From: Candidatus Cloacimonadales bacterium | Lineage (GTDB): Bacteria > Cloacimonadota > Cloacimonadia > Cloacimonadales > JAFGVF01 | Direction of reading: 5' to 3' | Assembly (NCBI GenBank): GCA_963678315.1 | Contig: OY782781.1 | Span: 576,001 to 640,000 of the forward strand | DNA: 64,000 nt | Shown here: positions 1 through 6,000 of the stretch, in pieces | Layout: each line of letters starts with the position of its first letter | Numbering within the stretch: position 1 is the first letter of the stretch | Position numbers: made by a program

Positions 1-3000
1 GGTGAGACTATCACTGAAAAGGGAAACAATGTAATATTAGATAAAATGGAGTTCCCTGACACAGTTATTTCCATTGCTATTGAAGCAAAATCCAAAGGTG
101 ATGAAGCTAACTTAAAAGATGCTCTTGAGAAGTTCCAAGAAGAAGACCCTACTATCAAAGTTCGTGAAGATAAAGATACAGGTCAAACTCTCATCTCTGG
201 TATGGGCGAACTACACTTAGAAATCATTGTAGACCGTCTTAAACGTGAATTCAATGTTAATGCTAACGTAGGTGACCCTCAAGTTGCTTATAAGGAAACA
301 ATTCTTCAAGCTAATACAGCAGAAGAGGTTTTCGACAGGATGCTTGGCGATAAACGTGCTTATGCTAAAGTTAAAGTTAAGGTTAGTCCAATTCAAGCAG
401 AAGATATTGATTCTAAATATAAGAATAAGTTTACTTTTAAAGGATCTGATGAACTAAAAGAATGCTTTAAAAATGCTATCGAAGAGGCAAGTCTTAACGC
501 CCTCAACGATGGACCAATCTTCTCAGCAAACTTAGAAAGAGTTCATGTTGAAGTTGTCCATGCTGAAACTCTTCCTGATGAAGATAACGACACAGGATTC
601 AGAATTGCTACATCAATGGCTGTTGGAAGAGCTATCAGAGAAACTAAGTCTGCCCTACTCGAACCTATTATGCTTGTAACAGTAATAACTCCTGAAGATT
701 ATGTTGGAGACATTATCTCTGACCTAAATAGTAAACGTGGTAAGATAGAAGAGATTAGAATGCAGAACAGCAAACAAGAAATCATTGCTAAAGTACCAAT
801 GCGTGAGCTCTTTGGTTATTCAACTACTATCCGTTCAATCAGCTCCGGAAGAGCTATCTATACTATGGAATATAGTAACTACGAAATCGTTCCTAACAAT
901 GTAAAAGAAGAAATCTTAAAGAAAATTAGAGGCTATTAGCCTTACTATTTAGAATATAAAATTAAAGGAGCATTGATTATTTGTCAGTGCTCCTTTTTTT
1001 ATCAAAGTATCATTAAACCAAAATTATTTTTATCTATTTATTTAAATTTATTGACTTTCCGCAAATATCTTATTATATTGAAAGTAGTTAGGAGGAAGGT
1101 ATGAAGAAAAACATATATACTCAATTAAAGACTATTGAGAATGGAATGAGTGATTTGTTATCTGCTATGTCTTCGTTGACTCATAATAAATATAGTTTTA
1201 GAGAGAACCATGAAGATTGTTGGACTCCGAATTGTGATGTCTATATTTCGGATGAAAAGTTACATGTAATAATTGAACTTGCTGGTGTAAACAAGGATTC
1301 TATTCATTTAGAATCAACCGATAAATCTCTTTTGATAAAAGGGAAAAGGGACTTTAAGTTCCCTTACAATGATGTTTGCTATTATTACATGGAAATTGAG
1401 ACAGGATACTTTGAAAGAGAAATTATTTTCCCTGACATAAGAATCGATTATGAAAAACCTGATGTTAAGTTTGAAAATGGAATACTAATAGTAACATTTG
1501 CTATTTTAGGATACCAGGACTACACTGTTCCTATTGAAACAGAATAAGATTTAGCTGGAAAGTTAACAGCTTTATTGGACATAAACTCATTAAGAGTTTT
1601 AAGGGTTTTTTACGCCTACAGTTTTGCAATTATATGTATCATTTTATTGTTCTTTTTTACCCCAAAGCAAGGTCACCCTTACTTGTCTCTTTGAAAAAAA
1701 GCCGATTTTTCAATGTGGCAAGTAAGTTAGGAGTGAGTTACTGGGAACGCTTTGCCTTTAGTCCGGCTGCTGCCGGATAGCCGGCTAATACTGGGAACGC
1801 ACAGCCTCCGTGCTGGCTTCACTTAGAACCTAGTGATAAGTGAATTTGTAGAGACGTTTGGAAAAACGTCTCAGATACAAGCTAGAAGCTTGTGTACCCA
1901 GTGGCAATTTCGTAGAGACGTTTGGAAAAACGTCTCAGATACAAGCTAGAAGCTTGTGTACCCATATTAATAGAACACAGACAGCATTGATTCTAAGGCA
2001 GTAAAACCCCTACTTAATCATAATCATTTTAGAGCTTCTTGTATATTCAGGTGTAGAAATTTTATAAAAATAGAGTCCTGATGAAACTCTTTTCCCTTCT
2101 TTATTTACTCCATTCCAGACCAGGCTATGGTTACCTTTATCGAGAGTTTCTTTCACTAGTGTTGTAACTGATTGTCCTTTGATGTTATATATCTCTATGG
2201 AAACAGGCATAGCTTTACTTAAAGTAAAAGAAATAGTTGTTTGAGGATTGAAAGGGTTTGGGTAGCAAGAAAGCTTATCTATAGGCAGTATTTCAGAATT
2301 ATCAATATTAGTGGAGTTATATTCAATAGGACCAATATCGACAGCAGTAGCGTGATTTCTAGGGTTTCCTAGAAGGTCATATTCAGGGAGCATAAAGTCA
2401 AAAGGTAACTGATTAGTTCCTGCGTTTGCAAGAAGAGAGAAGTCCTCTAAAAAGAAAATATCATTCTCTTGATTAATGACTAAATCCTCTGCAAATGTAT
2501 TATTATTAGCAAAGACAAAATCCATTACATTGTGGTTGCAATGAAAATCTTTGATAGAGAAAATTTGGTTATCTTCGAAGTAATAATCACTATTAGCGTA
2601 GACTAAATTATTATAGAAAAGAGGCTTAGAAACAAAGCTTTCAATAAGTCCAGCTTCATAGAAATCATCTTCATTTGTGATTGAATTAAAAAATAGCTGG
2701 TTGTTAAAGATTTTTGGATTAGAAAAATGGACTATGCCAACTGAGCCAGAGATAGAAGCAGTGTTGTTGTTGAATTGGTTGTTTTGAACTACTATATCGG
2801 CGTTGTTATTAAGGGCAAAGGCTGCACCATTATGTGCATAGTTATTCCTAAAAATAGAGTTTTCTATTAGTAGTTTATCAAAGTCAGAAACATTAAATAC
2901 AGCGCCAGAATCAGTAATCAATGATTCTGAAGTGTCTACAGCTTTAGCATATTCAAAGATACAATATTCAAATCGTGATTGTTCATTTGCATCTGAAGTA

Positions 3001-6000
3001 TGTATATAATCAATACCATTCCAACAGCCCTCTAAGTTGTCGTTGTTTTCGAATAAATAGAAGTCTTGGCTAGTGAACAAGATTCTGTTGTCAGCTGTGC
3101 CAATGGCTGAAATTGTTCCTTGGCAATCAATTTTATAATTCCCTTGAAAAGAAATGATAGATCCTTCAGCAAATGAGAGAATAACCCCATCTTCTATGAA
3201 AACATCACCTGTTACGCTGATGTTTGTTTCAGTGAGCTGAATACTCTCGCTAATTATACCAGACAGACTTTCTCTAGAGTCAGTTCTTAAGTTAAGGCTT
3301 TCCCTATCATTGATTAGTTCTGTGCAGCTAGATGAAGCAAGAAAAGTTTGACAGCCATATCCTTGAGCAGGACTATTTTCAGCTAACTGATAGTTACCAT
3401 TTTCTGGGTCAACCAACTGAGGGTCAATCATAGAAATATTATCGTTTATCTCAGCCTCCGGCCAAGTTTCTGGAGGTGCTCAGCCATAATCGCAGAATCT
3501 GCCATAATGGCGCATGGGCTCTCTATTTAGACGTGAATCGCTAAAATAAGACCAGTTTCTTTGGATTTGTGGAAAACCATATTCATTGTAGAAAACAGAA
3601 TGTACTACACTAAAACCTGTTGGTAACCACTCTTCTGTATAGCTTGTGAAGTTCACAAAATCATCTCCTGAAGAATAGCAATCTACAAAGATGTTATCAG
3701 TAACACTTATTCCTTGCCCAGTTGCATGGAGTCTTACTGCATAGTCTTCTGCATTATAAAAAGTAATGTTGGATACAGAGCCCTCTGGAAGTAAGTCACC
3801 ACCTTCAGTAGTTCCACGAAACTTAATTCCTCCATTGATAATAATACAATCTGAGATATCTAATCGTTTATCAGTATATTGCAGGGTAATGAAACCACCT
3901 TGGAGATCTAGTATAGCCCCATTCCCAATGATGTTAACATTTACCCCTAAAGTATCACAAAAGTCAGCAGTATTGGAGTTAAAGTAGCCACCAATAAGTA
4001 AAGAGCCTGTGTATACTTGACCTGTATTAAGTGTTAGCACCTTATCATATAACTCATTAGAAGGAGCTAAGTCATAGACTTCTTTTAATGATGTGGCATT
4101 TAGTAGAGTCACCCCAATTAGTAGAAGTAAAAATACAAAAGTTTTATTTTTCATACATCCTCTTAAATACATTTGTTAATATCTATTATTACAAAGATGT
4201 TTATCATTCTTCATAACAAAGATAAGTGATTAATAATAAAATAGCCTTGTTAAGTCAACAACATTTCTTGAGAAGTATTTTTTTGATTGACATAAGGTCA
4301 ATACAAATTTTTGATGTAAGTTAAAGTTAACTAGTAAGAAAGATAACAAAAATATATATCAGATGGAGGATTTATGAAAACTGGTGGAAGTCGTTACGGA
4401 ACTCACAGAGTTGTTGAACCACAAGGTGTTTTACCACAACCAGCGAGAGTTGTTGATAACAATATGACTGAGATATGGGATAATGAGATGCTCATCGATG
4501 TTATTAGATTAAATGTCGATTCTGCTTCTTTCCATCAAATCAAGAATAAATTAATTGCACAAGGCCATGAAGCAGATTTAGAAAAAGCATTTGCAGACCA
4601 TGTTATTGACTTAACAGAAAGAACTGGTAAGCATAAAAATGAAGATACAGGTTCAGGTGGAATGCTTATTGGTAGAGTTGCTAAGATCGGTCCTAACTTC
4701 GAAATGAAAGATGAAGTTAAAGAAGGTGACTTGATAGCTACATTAGTTTCCTTGTCATTAACTCCTTTAAAAGTGAATGAAGTAAAACGTGTAATTTTAG
4801 ATAAAGACCAAGTTGAGATTGAAGGTCAAGCTATCCTTTTCAGTTCAGGAATCTATGCTAAACTTCCAGAAGATATGGATATTAACTTAGCATTATCAGT
4901 TCTTGATGTTGCAGGTGCTCCAGCTCAAGCAGAAAGATTAGCTAACGCTGGAGACACAGTAGTTGTTTTAGGTGCAGCAGGTAAATCTGGTGTTCTTTGT
5001 AATGCTATCTGTCGTGAAAGAGTTGGTGTTTCTGGTAAAGTTATTGGTATTGTTCACCATGAAATCCACAGGGAAGAAGCATTAAAATCAGGTTGTAATG
5101 AAGTTTATATTGGCGATGCAACAGATGCAATAGCTATTGAAAAAACTATTCATGAAGCAACTAATGGTAAAATGGCTGACTTGGTAATAAATGTTGTTAA
5201 TGTAGAAAATACTGAAATGGCATCAATTATGGCTTGTAAAGATAGAGGTACAGTATACTTCTTCTCAATGGCTACATCATTCACAAAAGCTGCTTTAGGT
5301 GCTGAAGGTATCGGTGCAGATGTTGATATGATTCTAGGTAATGGCTATGCACATAATCATGCTATGATTTCTATCGATTTACTTCAAAGAAATGAATACT
5401 TAATGGGCTTATTCAAAACTAGATACACAGACTAAGAGGTAACTATGGCTGGAATTATTGATATCAAAACAATTGCTAGTCCTGATCAATGGAATGACTG
5501 GAAATGGCAATTAAAAAATAGAATTACTACATACGAAGATTTAAAGAAATATATTACTCTTTCTGAAGAAGAAGAAGCAGTATTCTCAGGAGAAGGATTC
5601 CCATTTAGAATGGCTATCACTCCTTACTACTTATCACTAATTGAAGAAGGAAACTTCAATGACCCAGTTAGATTACAAGCTGTACCTAAAATTCAAGAAT
5701 CAGCTTTAGTAAAAACTGATATGTCTGATCCTCTTCATGAAGATACAGATTCTCCTACTCCAGGATTAACTCACAGATATCCAGATAGATGTTTACTTCT
5801 CTTAACTGACCAATGCTCAATGTATTGCCGTCACTGTACTAGAAGAAGAAAAGCAGGTGAACATGATGCTCCAATGCCTAAAGATAACGTATCTAAAGCT
5901 ATTGAATACATCAGAAATACTCCTGAAATCAGAGACGTTATTCTTTCTGGTGGTGACCCATTAACTTTGGGAACAGCTAGACTTGAAGAAGTAATCTCTG

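Follow-up and report, generated by a model that had tools for sequence, protein, structure and literature searches.

The window, a stretch of 64,000 nucleotides from a Candidatus Cloacimonadales genome (contig OY782781.1, positions 576001–640000), carries on its minus strand two open reading frames (ORFs) in the same frame, 3480..4172 (230 aa) and 2010..3431 (473 aa), when read with translation table 11. The gene is annotated as two ORFs because of an in-frame TGA. Translation of window positions 2010–4154 (minus strand) with TGA as selenocysteine (Sec, U) yielded one frame of 714 residues, in which U225 within RFCDYGUAPPETW was the single recoded codon (Table 1). The TGA at 3480–3482 was identical in contigs from two other public runs. 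The note of a genome-wide survey had joined the two gene calls, g00425 and g00424, into one gene with an in-frame UGA; the 714-codon frame, the motif F-C221-D-Y-G-U225, the conservation of the TGA column and the Sec machinery of the genome all bear this out. The start and end positions in that note were correct, but its offset of 544000 was not, as the window begins at contig position 576001 and 576000 has to be subtracted.

Table 1. Features of the recoded gene in window coordinates
Feature	Position	Strand	Basis or remark
Whole gene	2010..4154	minus	714 codons (2013–4154) plus TAA stop (2010–2012); full-length homologues
Start codon (4152–4154) and signal-peptide-like stretch MKNKTFVFLLLLIGVTLLNAT, residues 1–21	4092..4154	minus	By eye
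N-terminal right-handed beta-helix module, residues 22–270; family-defining, bears the C/U pair	3345..4091	minus	AF2
Cys221 codon TGC, putative Sec partner	3492..3494	minus	TGA at this column in 8 of 54 related copies
In-frame TGA, putative Sec225	3480..3482	minus	TGA in 53 of 54 related copies, TGC in 1 of 54
SECIS-like hairpin CUUGGCC-GGA-GGCUGAG	3450..3466	minus	nt 17–33 counted from the U of the UGA
Cap motif DPQLVDPENGNYQLAENSPAQGYGC, residues 244–268, closing the first helix	3351..3425	minus	Alignment
Low-confidence inter-module linker, residues 274–285	3300..3335	minus	AF2 pLDDT <50
Second beta-helix module, residues ~290–613	2316..3287	minus	AF2 and paralogue matches
T9SS type A C-terminal sorting domain, residues 631–714	2013..2264	minus	PF18962 and TIGR04183 over cut-off

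The related gene copies that define the Sec225 column (TGA in 53 and Cys in one of 54) all came from Cloacimonadota, and in a search of the phylum 54 of the 55 rows covering this column held one or two TGA codons. A full-length homologue was present in 20 of 61 genomes, giving 21 rows: 15 with one TGA, among them the L020 copy with an additional TAA, five with two, and one without (G030). These counts are close to those reported by the survey. In the alignment, U was kept at its column in 19 of 20, and four carried it instead of the partner Cys. The TGA codon was retained at 34–55% protein identity, and the flanking residues were conserved on both sides, with P228 invariant and W231 encoded by TGG in 26 of 26 copies of the window's own clade. 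Because the conservation continues across the TGA and the codon is kept at such identities, the column is more than a product of chance. Forms with Cys at the Sec column fell into two clusters, L016/P0003 and P0162, reading LCEYGC. The partner column, at which a second U had been described for some relatives, was indeed TGA in eight copies, and at least six switches are required on a tree of 51 rows. The U-x3-U copies had intact frames of 687–710 residues, as cut for this analysis, in several lineages, which refutes the earlier concern that forms with two TGA codons might be pseudogenes.

The genome holds selA (410.7 bits), selB (324.6 bits), selD (357.1 bits) and a tRNA-Sec; the Pfam model SelB-wing_2 on its own found no match in it. 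Across the 61 genomes, SelA was detected in 19 of the 20 that bear the gene. Family f4 had neither SelA (0/9) nor the beta-helix gene (0/98). Counting against the selenoprotein reading, genome G016 carried a copy with two TGA codons and SelB, with SelA not found. The Cys form of G030 occurred in a genome with Sec machinery. Sequence comparison supports a reading of UGA225 as selenocysteine by the SelB/tRNA-Sec system of the organism.

The SECIS model of bSECISearch describes a stem-loop, some 16–37 nt past the UGA, whose apical loop bears a G. The hairpin of the window has seven pairs and a GGA loop (−7.6 kcal/mol). A conserved hairpin 17 nt past the UGA had been claimed before; the position was right, but the literal sequence GGCAGGAUGCC was absent from the gene at up to two mismatches. 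It was found in six of 20 relatives; in the window, a homologous variant, GGCCGGAGGCU, occupies this position. For the clade of the window, the homologous hairpin reached 25/500 and 38/500 in comparisons with shuffles, and it coincides in part with the conserved W-x-[DE]-A codons. A competing local hairpin was favoured in the isolated window RNA (pair probability 0.56 versus 0.02), the 91-nt fold was no better than shuffles (z 0.11), and Rfam gave no match. The sister clade (28 sequences) has a 6-bp hairpin with the loop AGUUG at +22..26, at the same distance from the UGA as that of the window. Here, 92.9% of cells were paired, compared with 82.2% for shuffles (0/500), covariation amounted to 0.431 against 0.219 (0/500), and RNAalifold recovered the same structure. 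Synonymous sites in this clade were frozen (Val GTC 23/23, Ser AGT 28/28); a nearby invariant Pro used all four codons (8/4/8/8). The evidence for a SECIS element is strong for the sister clade and only borderline for the clade of the window.

AlphaFold predicted two right-handed beta-helix modules and a T9SS sorting domain for the whole protein (pLDDT 87.5), and the N-terminal module modelled alone reached a pLDDT of 88.2 and a pTM of 0.88; together with the structural matches, these models agree with the beta-solenoid fold assigned by the survey. The low confidence it had reported for the Sec loop is outdated, since residues 221–230 had a mean pLDDT of 92 with a 39-sequence alignment. In the model, the C/U pair would lie in the coil following strand 217–220, past the last helix rung and ahead of the cap motif. 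Residues 1–19 had a pLDDT below 50; the homologues start with MK, a hydrophobic stretch and SLKEVYD. VIA-align of the N-terminal module returned 85 chains with Z ≥ 8, and among the 50 of these 85 that were listed nearly all were beta-helix proteins. The top match was the C-terminal domain of the PL6 alginate lyase BcAlyPL6 (7dmk_A, Z 14.0, rmsd 3.2, 190 aligned residues), with which the module shares the fold alone (18% identity). No Pfam or NCBIfam model matched the N-terminal module, and the window protein had no match over cut-off to Beta_helix (PF13229) or NosD (PF05048).

The second beta-helix module is common to many T9SS paralogues that are not selenoproteins, which match at residues ~410–714 without stops. 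The choice-of-anchor Q model NF041518 scored 15.3 bits at residues 572–613, under its cut-off of 25, and 42.6 bits in the relative P0102. Pfam, as the survey had found, and also NCBIfam recognize the T9SS sorting domain alone: residues 631–711 matched PF18962 (34.9 bits, cut-off 27), TIGR04183 (40.6 bits, cut-off 23) and FlgD_ig (36.5 bits). Foldseek matched this domain to the sorting domains of PorZ, PorU and T9SS-NucA, and the PorU sortase, the one component of the T9SS machinery that was searched for, is encoded in the genome (573.6 bits, cut-off 420). The assignment to T9SS is supported.

The N-terminal module is the unit of the family. In short relatives a sorting domain is its only companion; it also occurs in a second phylum, where Sec at both positions was verified in the DNA. 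In one lineage only, represented by one cluster of two members and one contig at 93% identity, it is fused to two rhodanese (sulfurtransferase) domains and carries the DNA-verified motif U-E-F-G-U. Distant relatives read C-G-U, C-P-G-U or C-G-C, the last appearing where others stop after C-G. Over the superfamily the pair takes the forms C/U-x3-U, C-x2-U, C-x-U and C-x-C, and by sequence comparison this chalcogen pair is the superfamily constant. Cys268 of the cap motif is invariant in the long family only and is not Cys in the short forms or in L157. No conserved partner gene was found beside the gene in the clades examined.

Bacterial redox selenoproteins with a Cys/Sec pair, some of them listed in the family table of PMC9312934, include thioredoxin-like CxxU/UxxC proteins, subunits of glycine and proline reductases and the GCUG tail of thioredoxin reductase. 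With this group the window family shares an in-frame UGA with a downstream hairpin, Cys homologues at the same column and a nearby Cys that could form a selenenylsulfide. It differs in being a right-handed beta-helix and not a thioredoxin fold, in a spacing of x3 (x1–x2 in distant relatives) with a partner Cys that is often Sec, and in its predicted sorting to the surface by T9SS. A thioredoxin-fold CxxU/UxxC or UxxU redoxin does not fit the predicted beta-helix fold, the location of the pair in a coil or the x3 spacing. SelL, a UxxU selenoprotein of aquatic eukaryotes, has a thioredoxin fold, an x2 spacing and a 3'-UTR SECIS, and a diselenide has been proposed for it. Both families have two Sec a few positions apart in one motif and a possible diselenide, whereas the window family is bacterial and has a predicted beta-helix fold, an x3 spacing with 12 nt between the two UGAs, and a putative SECIS inside the reading frame. 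T9SS beta-helix cargo with the NF041518 cap has in common with it a putative signal peptide, a beta-helix, the cap DPxLxDPxNGDY..SPA and a sorting domain; unlike the window family, NF041518, PF13229 and PF05048 lack Sec as well as a conserved C-x(1-3)-C/U loop. In the published literature searched, no description of this beta-helix selenoprotein family was found, in line with the proposal of a new family.

The same genome encodes another T9SS-sorted selenoprotein, a UxxC redoxin with the motif GSPGUSGC, whose gene call is likewise split by a TGA. It shares the organism and the sorting domain with the beta-helix protein, but its fold and motif are unrelated and its distribution is different. 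Of 60 relative rows, 58 had the TGA; counting the gene of the genome itself, there were 61 rows. There was no strict co-occurrence: in the genome's own family, f1, the beta-helix gene was found in 10 of the 11 other genomes and the UxxC redoxin in 0 of 11.

The gene almost certainly encodes a real, surface-sorted selenoprotein. A short hairpin whose loop is rich in G, some 20 nt past the UGA, would aid decoding. The putative signal peptide would export the protein and the C-terminal sorting domain would take it through the T9SS; because of this route, it is probably located at the cell surface or beyond it. The part that does the work would be the N-terminal beta-helix module of ~250 residues, whose loop past the last rung bears Cys221 and Sec225, four residues apart, with the second helix and the sorting domain serving for display. 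The pair may cycle from selenol/thiol to a selenenylsulfide and back, with a diselenide in its stead if both residues are Sec. It could form a low-potential, kinetically fast chalcogen centre that works under the strongly reducing conditions of sulfidic habitats, in which a disulfide stays reduced, and its most likely exchange partners outside the cell would be thiols, disulfides or sulfane sulfur (polysulfide, persulfides). Sulfane-sulfur chemistry is suggested by the rhodanese fusion. We know of no reductant outside the outer membrane, which counts against a redox role, and for a redox or sulfane-sulfur role of the pair taken by itself the chances appear evenly balanced. For the statement as a whole, that of a recoded, exported selenoprotein with a redox or sulfane-sulfur pair, we estimate a probability of roughly 0.55.

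The C/U pair might, in a reading that we consider unlikely, be a metal or metalloid site, a selenolate/thiolate chelate at the surface that captures soft metals (Ni, Co, Cu, Zn, Hg or As) bound as sulfides in anoxic habitats, or sequesters toxic ones, without redox cycling. The variable spacing (x1, x2 or x3) and the presence of Sec at either position suit a chelate better than a rigid redox helix motif. Two distant Cys relatives (P0058, P0136) scored over the cut-off for PF13229/PF05048, including the Pfam family NosD, "periplasmic copper-binding protein" (32.7 bits, cut-off 23.6), and NosD was also among the fold matches (7o0y_A, Z 10.4). In a preprint on other recently proposed selenoproteins, motifs of adjacent Cys and Sec (CU) are read by the author as two ligands of one metal atom (bioRxiv 10.1101/2022.07.06.499078). 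The NosD match of the relatives, however, falls on generic beta-helix repeats and not on a metal site, no metal-transport or resistance genes lie beside the gene in any clade examined, and the rhodanese fusion argues for sulfur rather than metal.

Less probable still is a purely structural role, in which the Se-S or Se-Se bond would be a reduction-resistant cross-link locking the cap loop of the first helix without catalytic turnover. In its favour are the reduction potentials of diselenides and selenenylsulfides, which lie far below those of disulfides, the predicted extracellular location in strict anaerobes, the place of the pair past the last rung and before the cap motif, and the repeated changes from C to U at the partner column, which would suit a tuning of bond stability. 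A link from i to i+4 (or i+2), on the other hand, closes a tiny ring and stabilizes little; known selenoproteins almost always use the costly Sec for catalysis, and Cys forms persist in genomes with Sec machinery, as in G030. We regard it as very improbable that the protein is a carbohydrate-active or other hydrolytic or lytic enzyme of the PL6/pectate-lyase-like type, in which Sec would act as the nucleophile or a ligand and Cys as auxiliary. The best fold matches were polysaccharide lyases, hydrolases and tailspike depolymerases (7dmk_A, Z 14.0; many at Z 10–12), but they are generic beta-helix matches in a flat list at 7–18% identity. Neither Pfam nor NCBIfam assigns the window's protein to such a family, and to our knowledge no natural hydrolase or lyase has a catalytic Sec. 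That the TGA is a true stop, leaving two separate genes or a decaying pseudogene with the downstream frame expressed from the ATG at 3431, is hardly credible and already contradicted by the comparative data: table 11 does give two ORFs, the second with its own ATG, and public gene calls of relatives end at this codon, but relatives conserve the 16 codons from the TGA to that ATG (among them the invariant P228, and W231), the TGA column persists down to ~34% identity, the N-terminal part would be left without a sorting domain and the C-terminal part without a signal peptide, and the genome has the Sec machinery.

Beyond the selenoprotein with a redox or sulfane-sulfur pair favoured here, a broader reading is tentative and rather doubtful as a whole: these proteins may represent a widespread, unannotated extracellular class of selenoproteins whose beta-helix module displays a Cys/Sec or Sec/Sec pair as a redox or sulfane-sulfur relay, operating at the very low potential found in sulfidic anoxic habitats. 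If true, they would include the first natural diselenide proteins of bacteria, and lineages would tune the couple by toggling the partner between Cys and Sec. A single in-frame SECIS serving two UGAs 12 nt apart would, moreover, relax the spacing rule derived from E. coli.

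Read with TGA as selenocysteine (U), the stretch 2010-4154 on the minus strand of the window formed a single frame of 714 residues in which U225 was the sole recoded codon, within the context R-F-C221-D-Y-G-U225-A-P-P-E-T-W. The two called ORFs are therefore one gene with a UGA in the motif F-C-D-Y-G-U, as the genome-wide survey's note had proposed. The start and end of the gene were also correctly placed in our coordinates, but an offset of 544000 was wrong: the window corresponds to contig positions 576001-640000, and only this offset fits a TGA at 579480-579482. Contigs from two other public runs spanned the gene, and the TGA was unchanged in both. 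In one of them, run X3, ten differences were located downstream of the TGA; by hand calculation, eight of these fall on the third base of a codon in the read-through frame. None of the runs covering this stretch was listed as RNA; one run guessed to be RNA comprised a 237-nt contig at depth 2.

Coordinates of the features discussed in the text
Feature	Position	Strand	Remark
ORF 1 (table 11)	window 3480..4172	-	same frame as ORF 2
ORF 2 (table 11)	window 2010..3431	-	same frame as ORF 1
In-frame TGA (U225)	window 3480-3482	-	translation with TGA = U
N-terminal right-handed beta-helix	about residues 22-270		AlphaFold2
Disordered linker	residues 274-285		AlphaFold2
Second beta-helix	about residues 290-613		AlphaFold2
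Beta-sandwich sorting domain	C-terminal		AlphaFold2
Hsp20 gene, downstream	window 1101-1547	+	
Zn-dehydrogenase-like gene and lysine 2,3-aminomutase, diverging upstream	window 4374-6692	+	
selB, selA and tRNA-Sec side by side	G000:C1:2287845-2291245		outside the window
selD, own in-frame TGA	G000:C1:725680-726606		outside the window
UxxC redoxin (GSPGUSGC), second T9SS-sorted selenoprotein of the source genome	G000:C1:~2914700-2916200		outside the window
L157, metagenome relative	223-1965	+	N-terminal lipobox-like LFSC, two rhodanese domains, module with U-E-F-G-U
L168, second-phylum homologue (group of a Candidatus Neomarinimicrobiota genome)	1486-3500	+	V-U-D-Y-G-U

A full-length homologue was present in 20 of 61 related genomes. 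Among the 21 rows, 15 contained one internal TGA (one of these also a TAA), five contained two and one had no internal stop. The N-terminal module, which is the beta-helix carrying the C/U pair, was found in 56 of 232 genomes of the phylum; the 55 rows covering residue 225 comprised 46 with one TGA, eight with two and one without. From the loci of both searches and 20 additionally fetched stretches, 54 gene copies were cut out. They shared the motif [C/U]-[DE]-[YWF]-[GAS]-[U/C], with C...U in 45 copies, U...U in eight and C...C in one, and the sequence conservation carried on past the UGA codon. N200, W201, N210, C221, U225, P228 and C268 were invariant in an alignment of 39 sequences. On these sequence data we put the probability that the gene is a selenoprotein read through its UGA at about 0.95. 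The U...U copies agree with the earlier observation that some relatives carry Sec in place of the partner Cys, and a quick tree of 51 copies with moderate support required at least six switches between Cys and Sec at this position. Copies with two TGA codons had been considered possible pseudogenes; since the frames of the U-x3-U copies are intact, with 687-710 residues as cut, they are not decaying genes. One copy, L020 on contig C132 of genome G006, has an extra in-frame TAA besides its TGA, which may reflect either a damaged gene or a misassembly of the 83%-complete MAG.

The recoding hairpin GGCAGGAUGCC attributed to the window was absent from it and occurred in six of 20 relatives; at the homologous place the window contains GGCCGGAGGCU. 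When window 3350-3560 was compared with Rfam at E <= 10, four chance-level rows and no SECIS family were returned, and a 91-nt MFE fold centred on the UGA region gave a z of 0.11. In a mixed alignment of 20 sequences the hairpin was not significant (78/500 shuffles), and RNAalifold proposed an unrelated 3-pair helix. This null result was resolved when the statistics were computed clade by clade. The peptide following Sec divides the copies into a sister group (n = 28, [VA]-S-W-A) and the window's own group (n = 26, W-x-[DE]-A). In the sister group, RNAalifold and manual drawing agreed on a 6-bp stem that encloses the loop AGUUG and is made of nucleotides 16-21 and 27-32 (counting starts at the U of UGA). 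Its cells were paired to 92.9% versus 82.2% in shuffles and its covariation score was 0.431 versus 0.219 (0/500 shuffles reaching either value), with compensatory changes in three of the six pairs. The synonymous sites under the loop were frozen (Val GTC 23/23, Ser AGT 28/28), while the invariant Pro four codons upstream was encoded by CCA/CCC/CCG/CCT in 8/4/8/8 copies. In the fdhF element of E. coli, SelB requires the loop bases G23 and U24; the loop of the sister group is A22-G23-U24-U25-G26. The only Cys form among the 54 copies (TGC; L016 in genome G030) retained the sister-clade hairpin at nucleotides 16-32, GGUGGUC-AGUUG-GGCUGCC, with all its pairs intact, which points to a recent replacement of Sec by Cys; selA and selB are still present in that genome.

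The hairpin of the window's own group consists of G20-G21-C22-N23, a GGA loop, N27-G28-C29-C30 and a lower stem. Its support was borderline, with a pairing of 75.8% versus 72.3% in shuffles (25/500) and a covariation of 0.249 versus 0.210 (38/500); RNAalifold retained only pairs 18-32 to 21-29. Nucleotides 17-33 of the window RNA form seven pairs around the GGA loop (-7.6 kcal/mol), and a window-specific competitor, pairing nucleotides 7-11 with 24-28, is favoured when the RNA is folded in isolation. Judging from ribosome footprints, a ribosome with UGA in the A site would cover nucleotides 4 to ~14 and would thereby presumably release the conserved hairpin.

The source genome (G000) contains selA (410.7 bits) with an adjoining selB (324.6 bits versus a cut-off of 242), and aragorn detected a tRNA-Sec beside them; the Pfam model SelB-wing_2 alone had no match in this genome. 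Given its in-frame TGA, selD is probably a selenoprotein gene as well. Of the 61 related genomes, 20 bear the gene, and all but one of these contained SelA. The exception, G016, has a selB over the cut-off, but its 500 contigs yielded no selA. In f4, another large family of the phylum, SelA occurred in 0/9 and the beta-helix gene in 0/98 genomes. The gene thus tracks the Sec trait.

When 1.84 billion proteins were searched with a profile of the N-terminal module, 363 representatives passed E <= 0.001 and 30 passed E <= 1e-30. Public gene calls were cut at the Sec codons: 14 of the best matches end with C-x-x-G before a stop, and eight end one residue ahead of the first position, corresponding to the U-x3-U type. 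P0004, P0016, P0023, P0024 and P0161 run on with Trp at the exact U positions (WEYGW, CDTGW, CNTGW, WATGW and WETGW). Since close truncated relatives stop where these W stand, they probably represent TGA translated under another table, table 4. One member, P0155, is present in NCBI. A protein-cluster search with the table-11 N-terminal ORF returned only generic Beta_helix, DUF4957, DUF1565 and NosD clusters. A contig scan with the short-form alignment, seeded by NYPNPFNP of the sorting domain, gave at least 77 loci, nearly all of them sorting-domain-only and one reaching residue 132; a search with the whole of P0024 in five of the genomes from that scan was likewise swamped by sorting-domain matches.

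Four architectures were distinguished: a long form composed like the gene in the window, a short form of 319-376 aa with module and sorting domain, a lipoprotein-like form with two rhodanese domains and the module, and a long form from a second phylum with module, second helix and a different C-terminus. The lipoprotein-like form was read in the DNA of a contig with 93% identity, which gave ...FAKL-U-E-F-G-U-EPCEAW...DPQLIDPENGNY... and ended after 581 residues. The first rhodanese domain of L157 has the Cys loop CYSGQK and the second a Ser; a sorting domain is absent. A word-index search with the fused domain (four matches) revealed no second rhodanese-fused cluster, and the fusion is limited to one lineage. 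L168 ends in an Asp-rich repeat, dockerin-like by eye, in place of the T9SS domain, and the genome of the second-phylum copy contains selA and selB. More distant relatives, which match Pfam Beta_helix and NosD over the cut-off, either break off behind C-G, C-P-G or C-P-S or have C-G-C or C-D-C. Outside the long form, Cys268 is not conserved. What stays constant in the superfamily is thus a pair of chalcogen residues, with a spacing of 2-4 positions, where a beta-helix of ~200 residues ends. Four of the distant C-x-C relatives (P0045, P0085, P0099 and P0137) have a common tail, W-G-x-I-K-x-x-Y-R, instead of the T9SS domain, which may be another sorting signal.

The AlphaFold2 model of the full protein, built with the 39-sequence alignment, reached a mean pLDDT of 87.5 and a pTM of 0.79. 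Its two predicted beta-helix parts, of which the N-terminal module alone scored 88.2, are in line with the fold suggested before; the Sec loop, previously of low confidence, now has a pLDDT of 92 (residues 221-230). The T9SS sorting domain at residues 631-711 was the sole match above threshold in Pfam and NCBIfam, and so remained the only recognised domain; a choice-of-anchor Q match at residues 572-613 fell below it. The N-terminus was judged by eye to be a putative signal peptide. T9SS sorting of the protein is plausible since PorU is present in the source genome. In structure, the module came closest to a PL6 alginate lyase, namely to its C-terminal domain (Z 14.0, rmsd 3.2, 190 residues, 18% identity); lyases, hydrolases, tailspikes and NosD followed, none of them standing out. 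The fold is thus common to all of these, and no function follows from it. Foldseek with the full model returned generic beta-helix and sorting-domain rows.

Compared with disulfides, selenenylsulfide and diselenide couples lie at much lower potentials and exchange faster. We infer that such a couple is the best reading of the Cys/Sec or Sec/Sec pair on this putatively exported protein of strict anaerobes; it would still cycle where a disulfide stays permanently reduced. The fusion of the module to rhodanese, a sulfane-sulfur transferase, suggests polysulfide or persulfide as reaction partner. The pair may instead be a soft-metal chelate, which is favoured by the varying spacing of the chalcogens and by the reading of CU motifs as metal ligands in bioRxiv 10.1101/2022.07.06.499078. 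The Se-S or Se-Se bond could also have a structural role, as a staple that withstands reduction. A lyase or hydrolase that depends on Sec is a further candidate.

No conserved neighbour gene chose between the redox couple and these alternatives, and none spanned the whole family in the window and the relatives' loci. The Hsp20 gene and the dehydrogenase and aminomutase genes, the latter two of which we take to be lysine fermentation genes, had no visible link to the beta-helix gene. Recurrent neighbours in relatives were only a PrsW-family intramembrane protease, an aldo/keto reductase and other T9SS cargo. The PrsW gene lies directly upstream on the same strand at eight loci of two genera (L039, L040, L042, L044, L047, L049, L051 and L055) and is absent beside the gene in the window. 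The UxxC redoxin was considered as a partner. Among the 232 genomes of the phylum, 53 contain it (one TGA in 59 of 61 rows, none in the other two), but it was found in 0/11 other genomes of the window's family; co-occurrence is thus not strict and the candidate was rejected.

The great majority of known bacterial selenoproteins are redox enzymes that work in the cytoplasm or periplasm and share a few folds. Literature searches on selenoproteins in connection with Cloacimonadota, type IX secretion, beta-helices or families in general yielded nothing on this beta-helix family. In the portions available to us, two reviews, the deep-Sep and BSepDB papers and the "eight unexpected families" preprint contained no secreted, beta-helix or Cloacimonadota selenoprotein family, and the available part of the BSepDB supplement made no mention of helix, NosD, secretion, pectate or outer membrane. 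Since NCBIfam release 20 also lacks a model of the N-terminal module, the survey's claim of novelty holds as far as these sources reach, and we rate the beta-helix proteins as a new predicted selenoprotein family with an unusual fold, location and toggling second Sec. It would place Sec on a beta-helix with predicted T9SS surface sorting, in organisms abundant in anaerobic digesters. In the relatives whose two Sec are separated by four positions, diselenide chemistry and the decoding of two close UGAs can be tested on a natural example. As gene callers break almost all members into two pieces or translate the UGA as Trp, the full-length beta-helix selenoprotein is missing from surface proteomes and from the metaproteome databases for these phyla.
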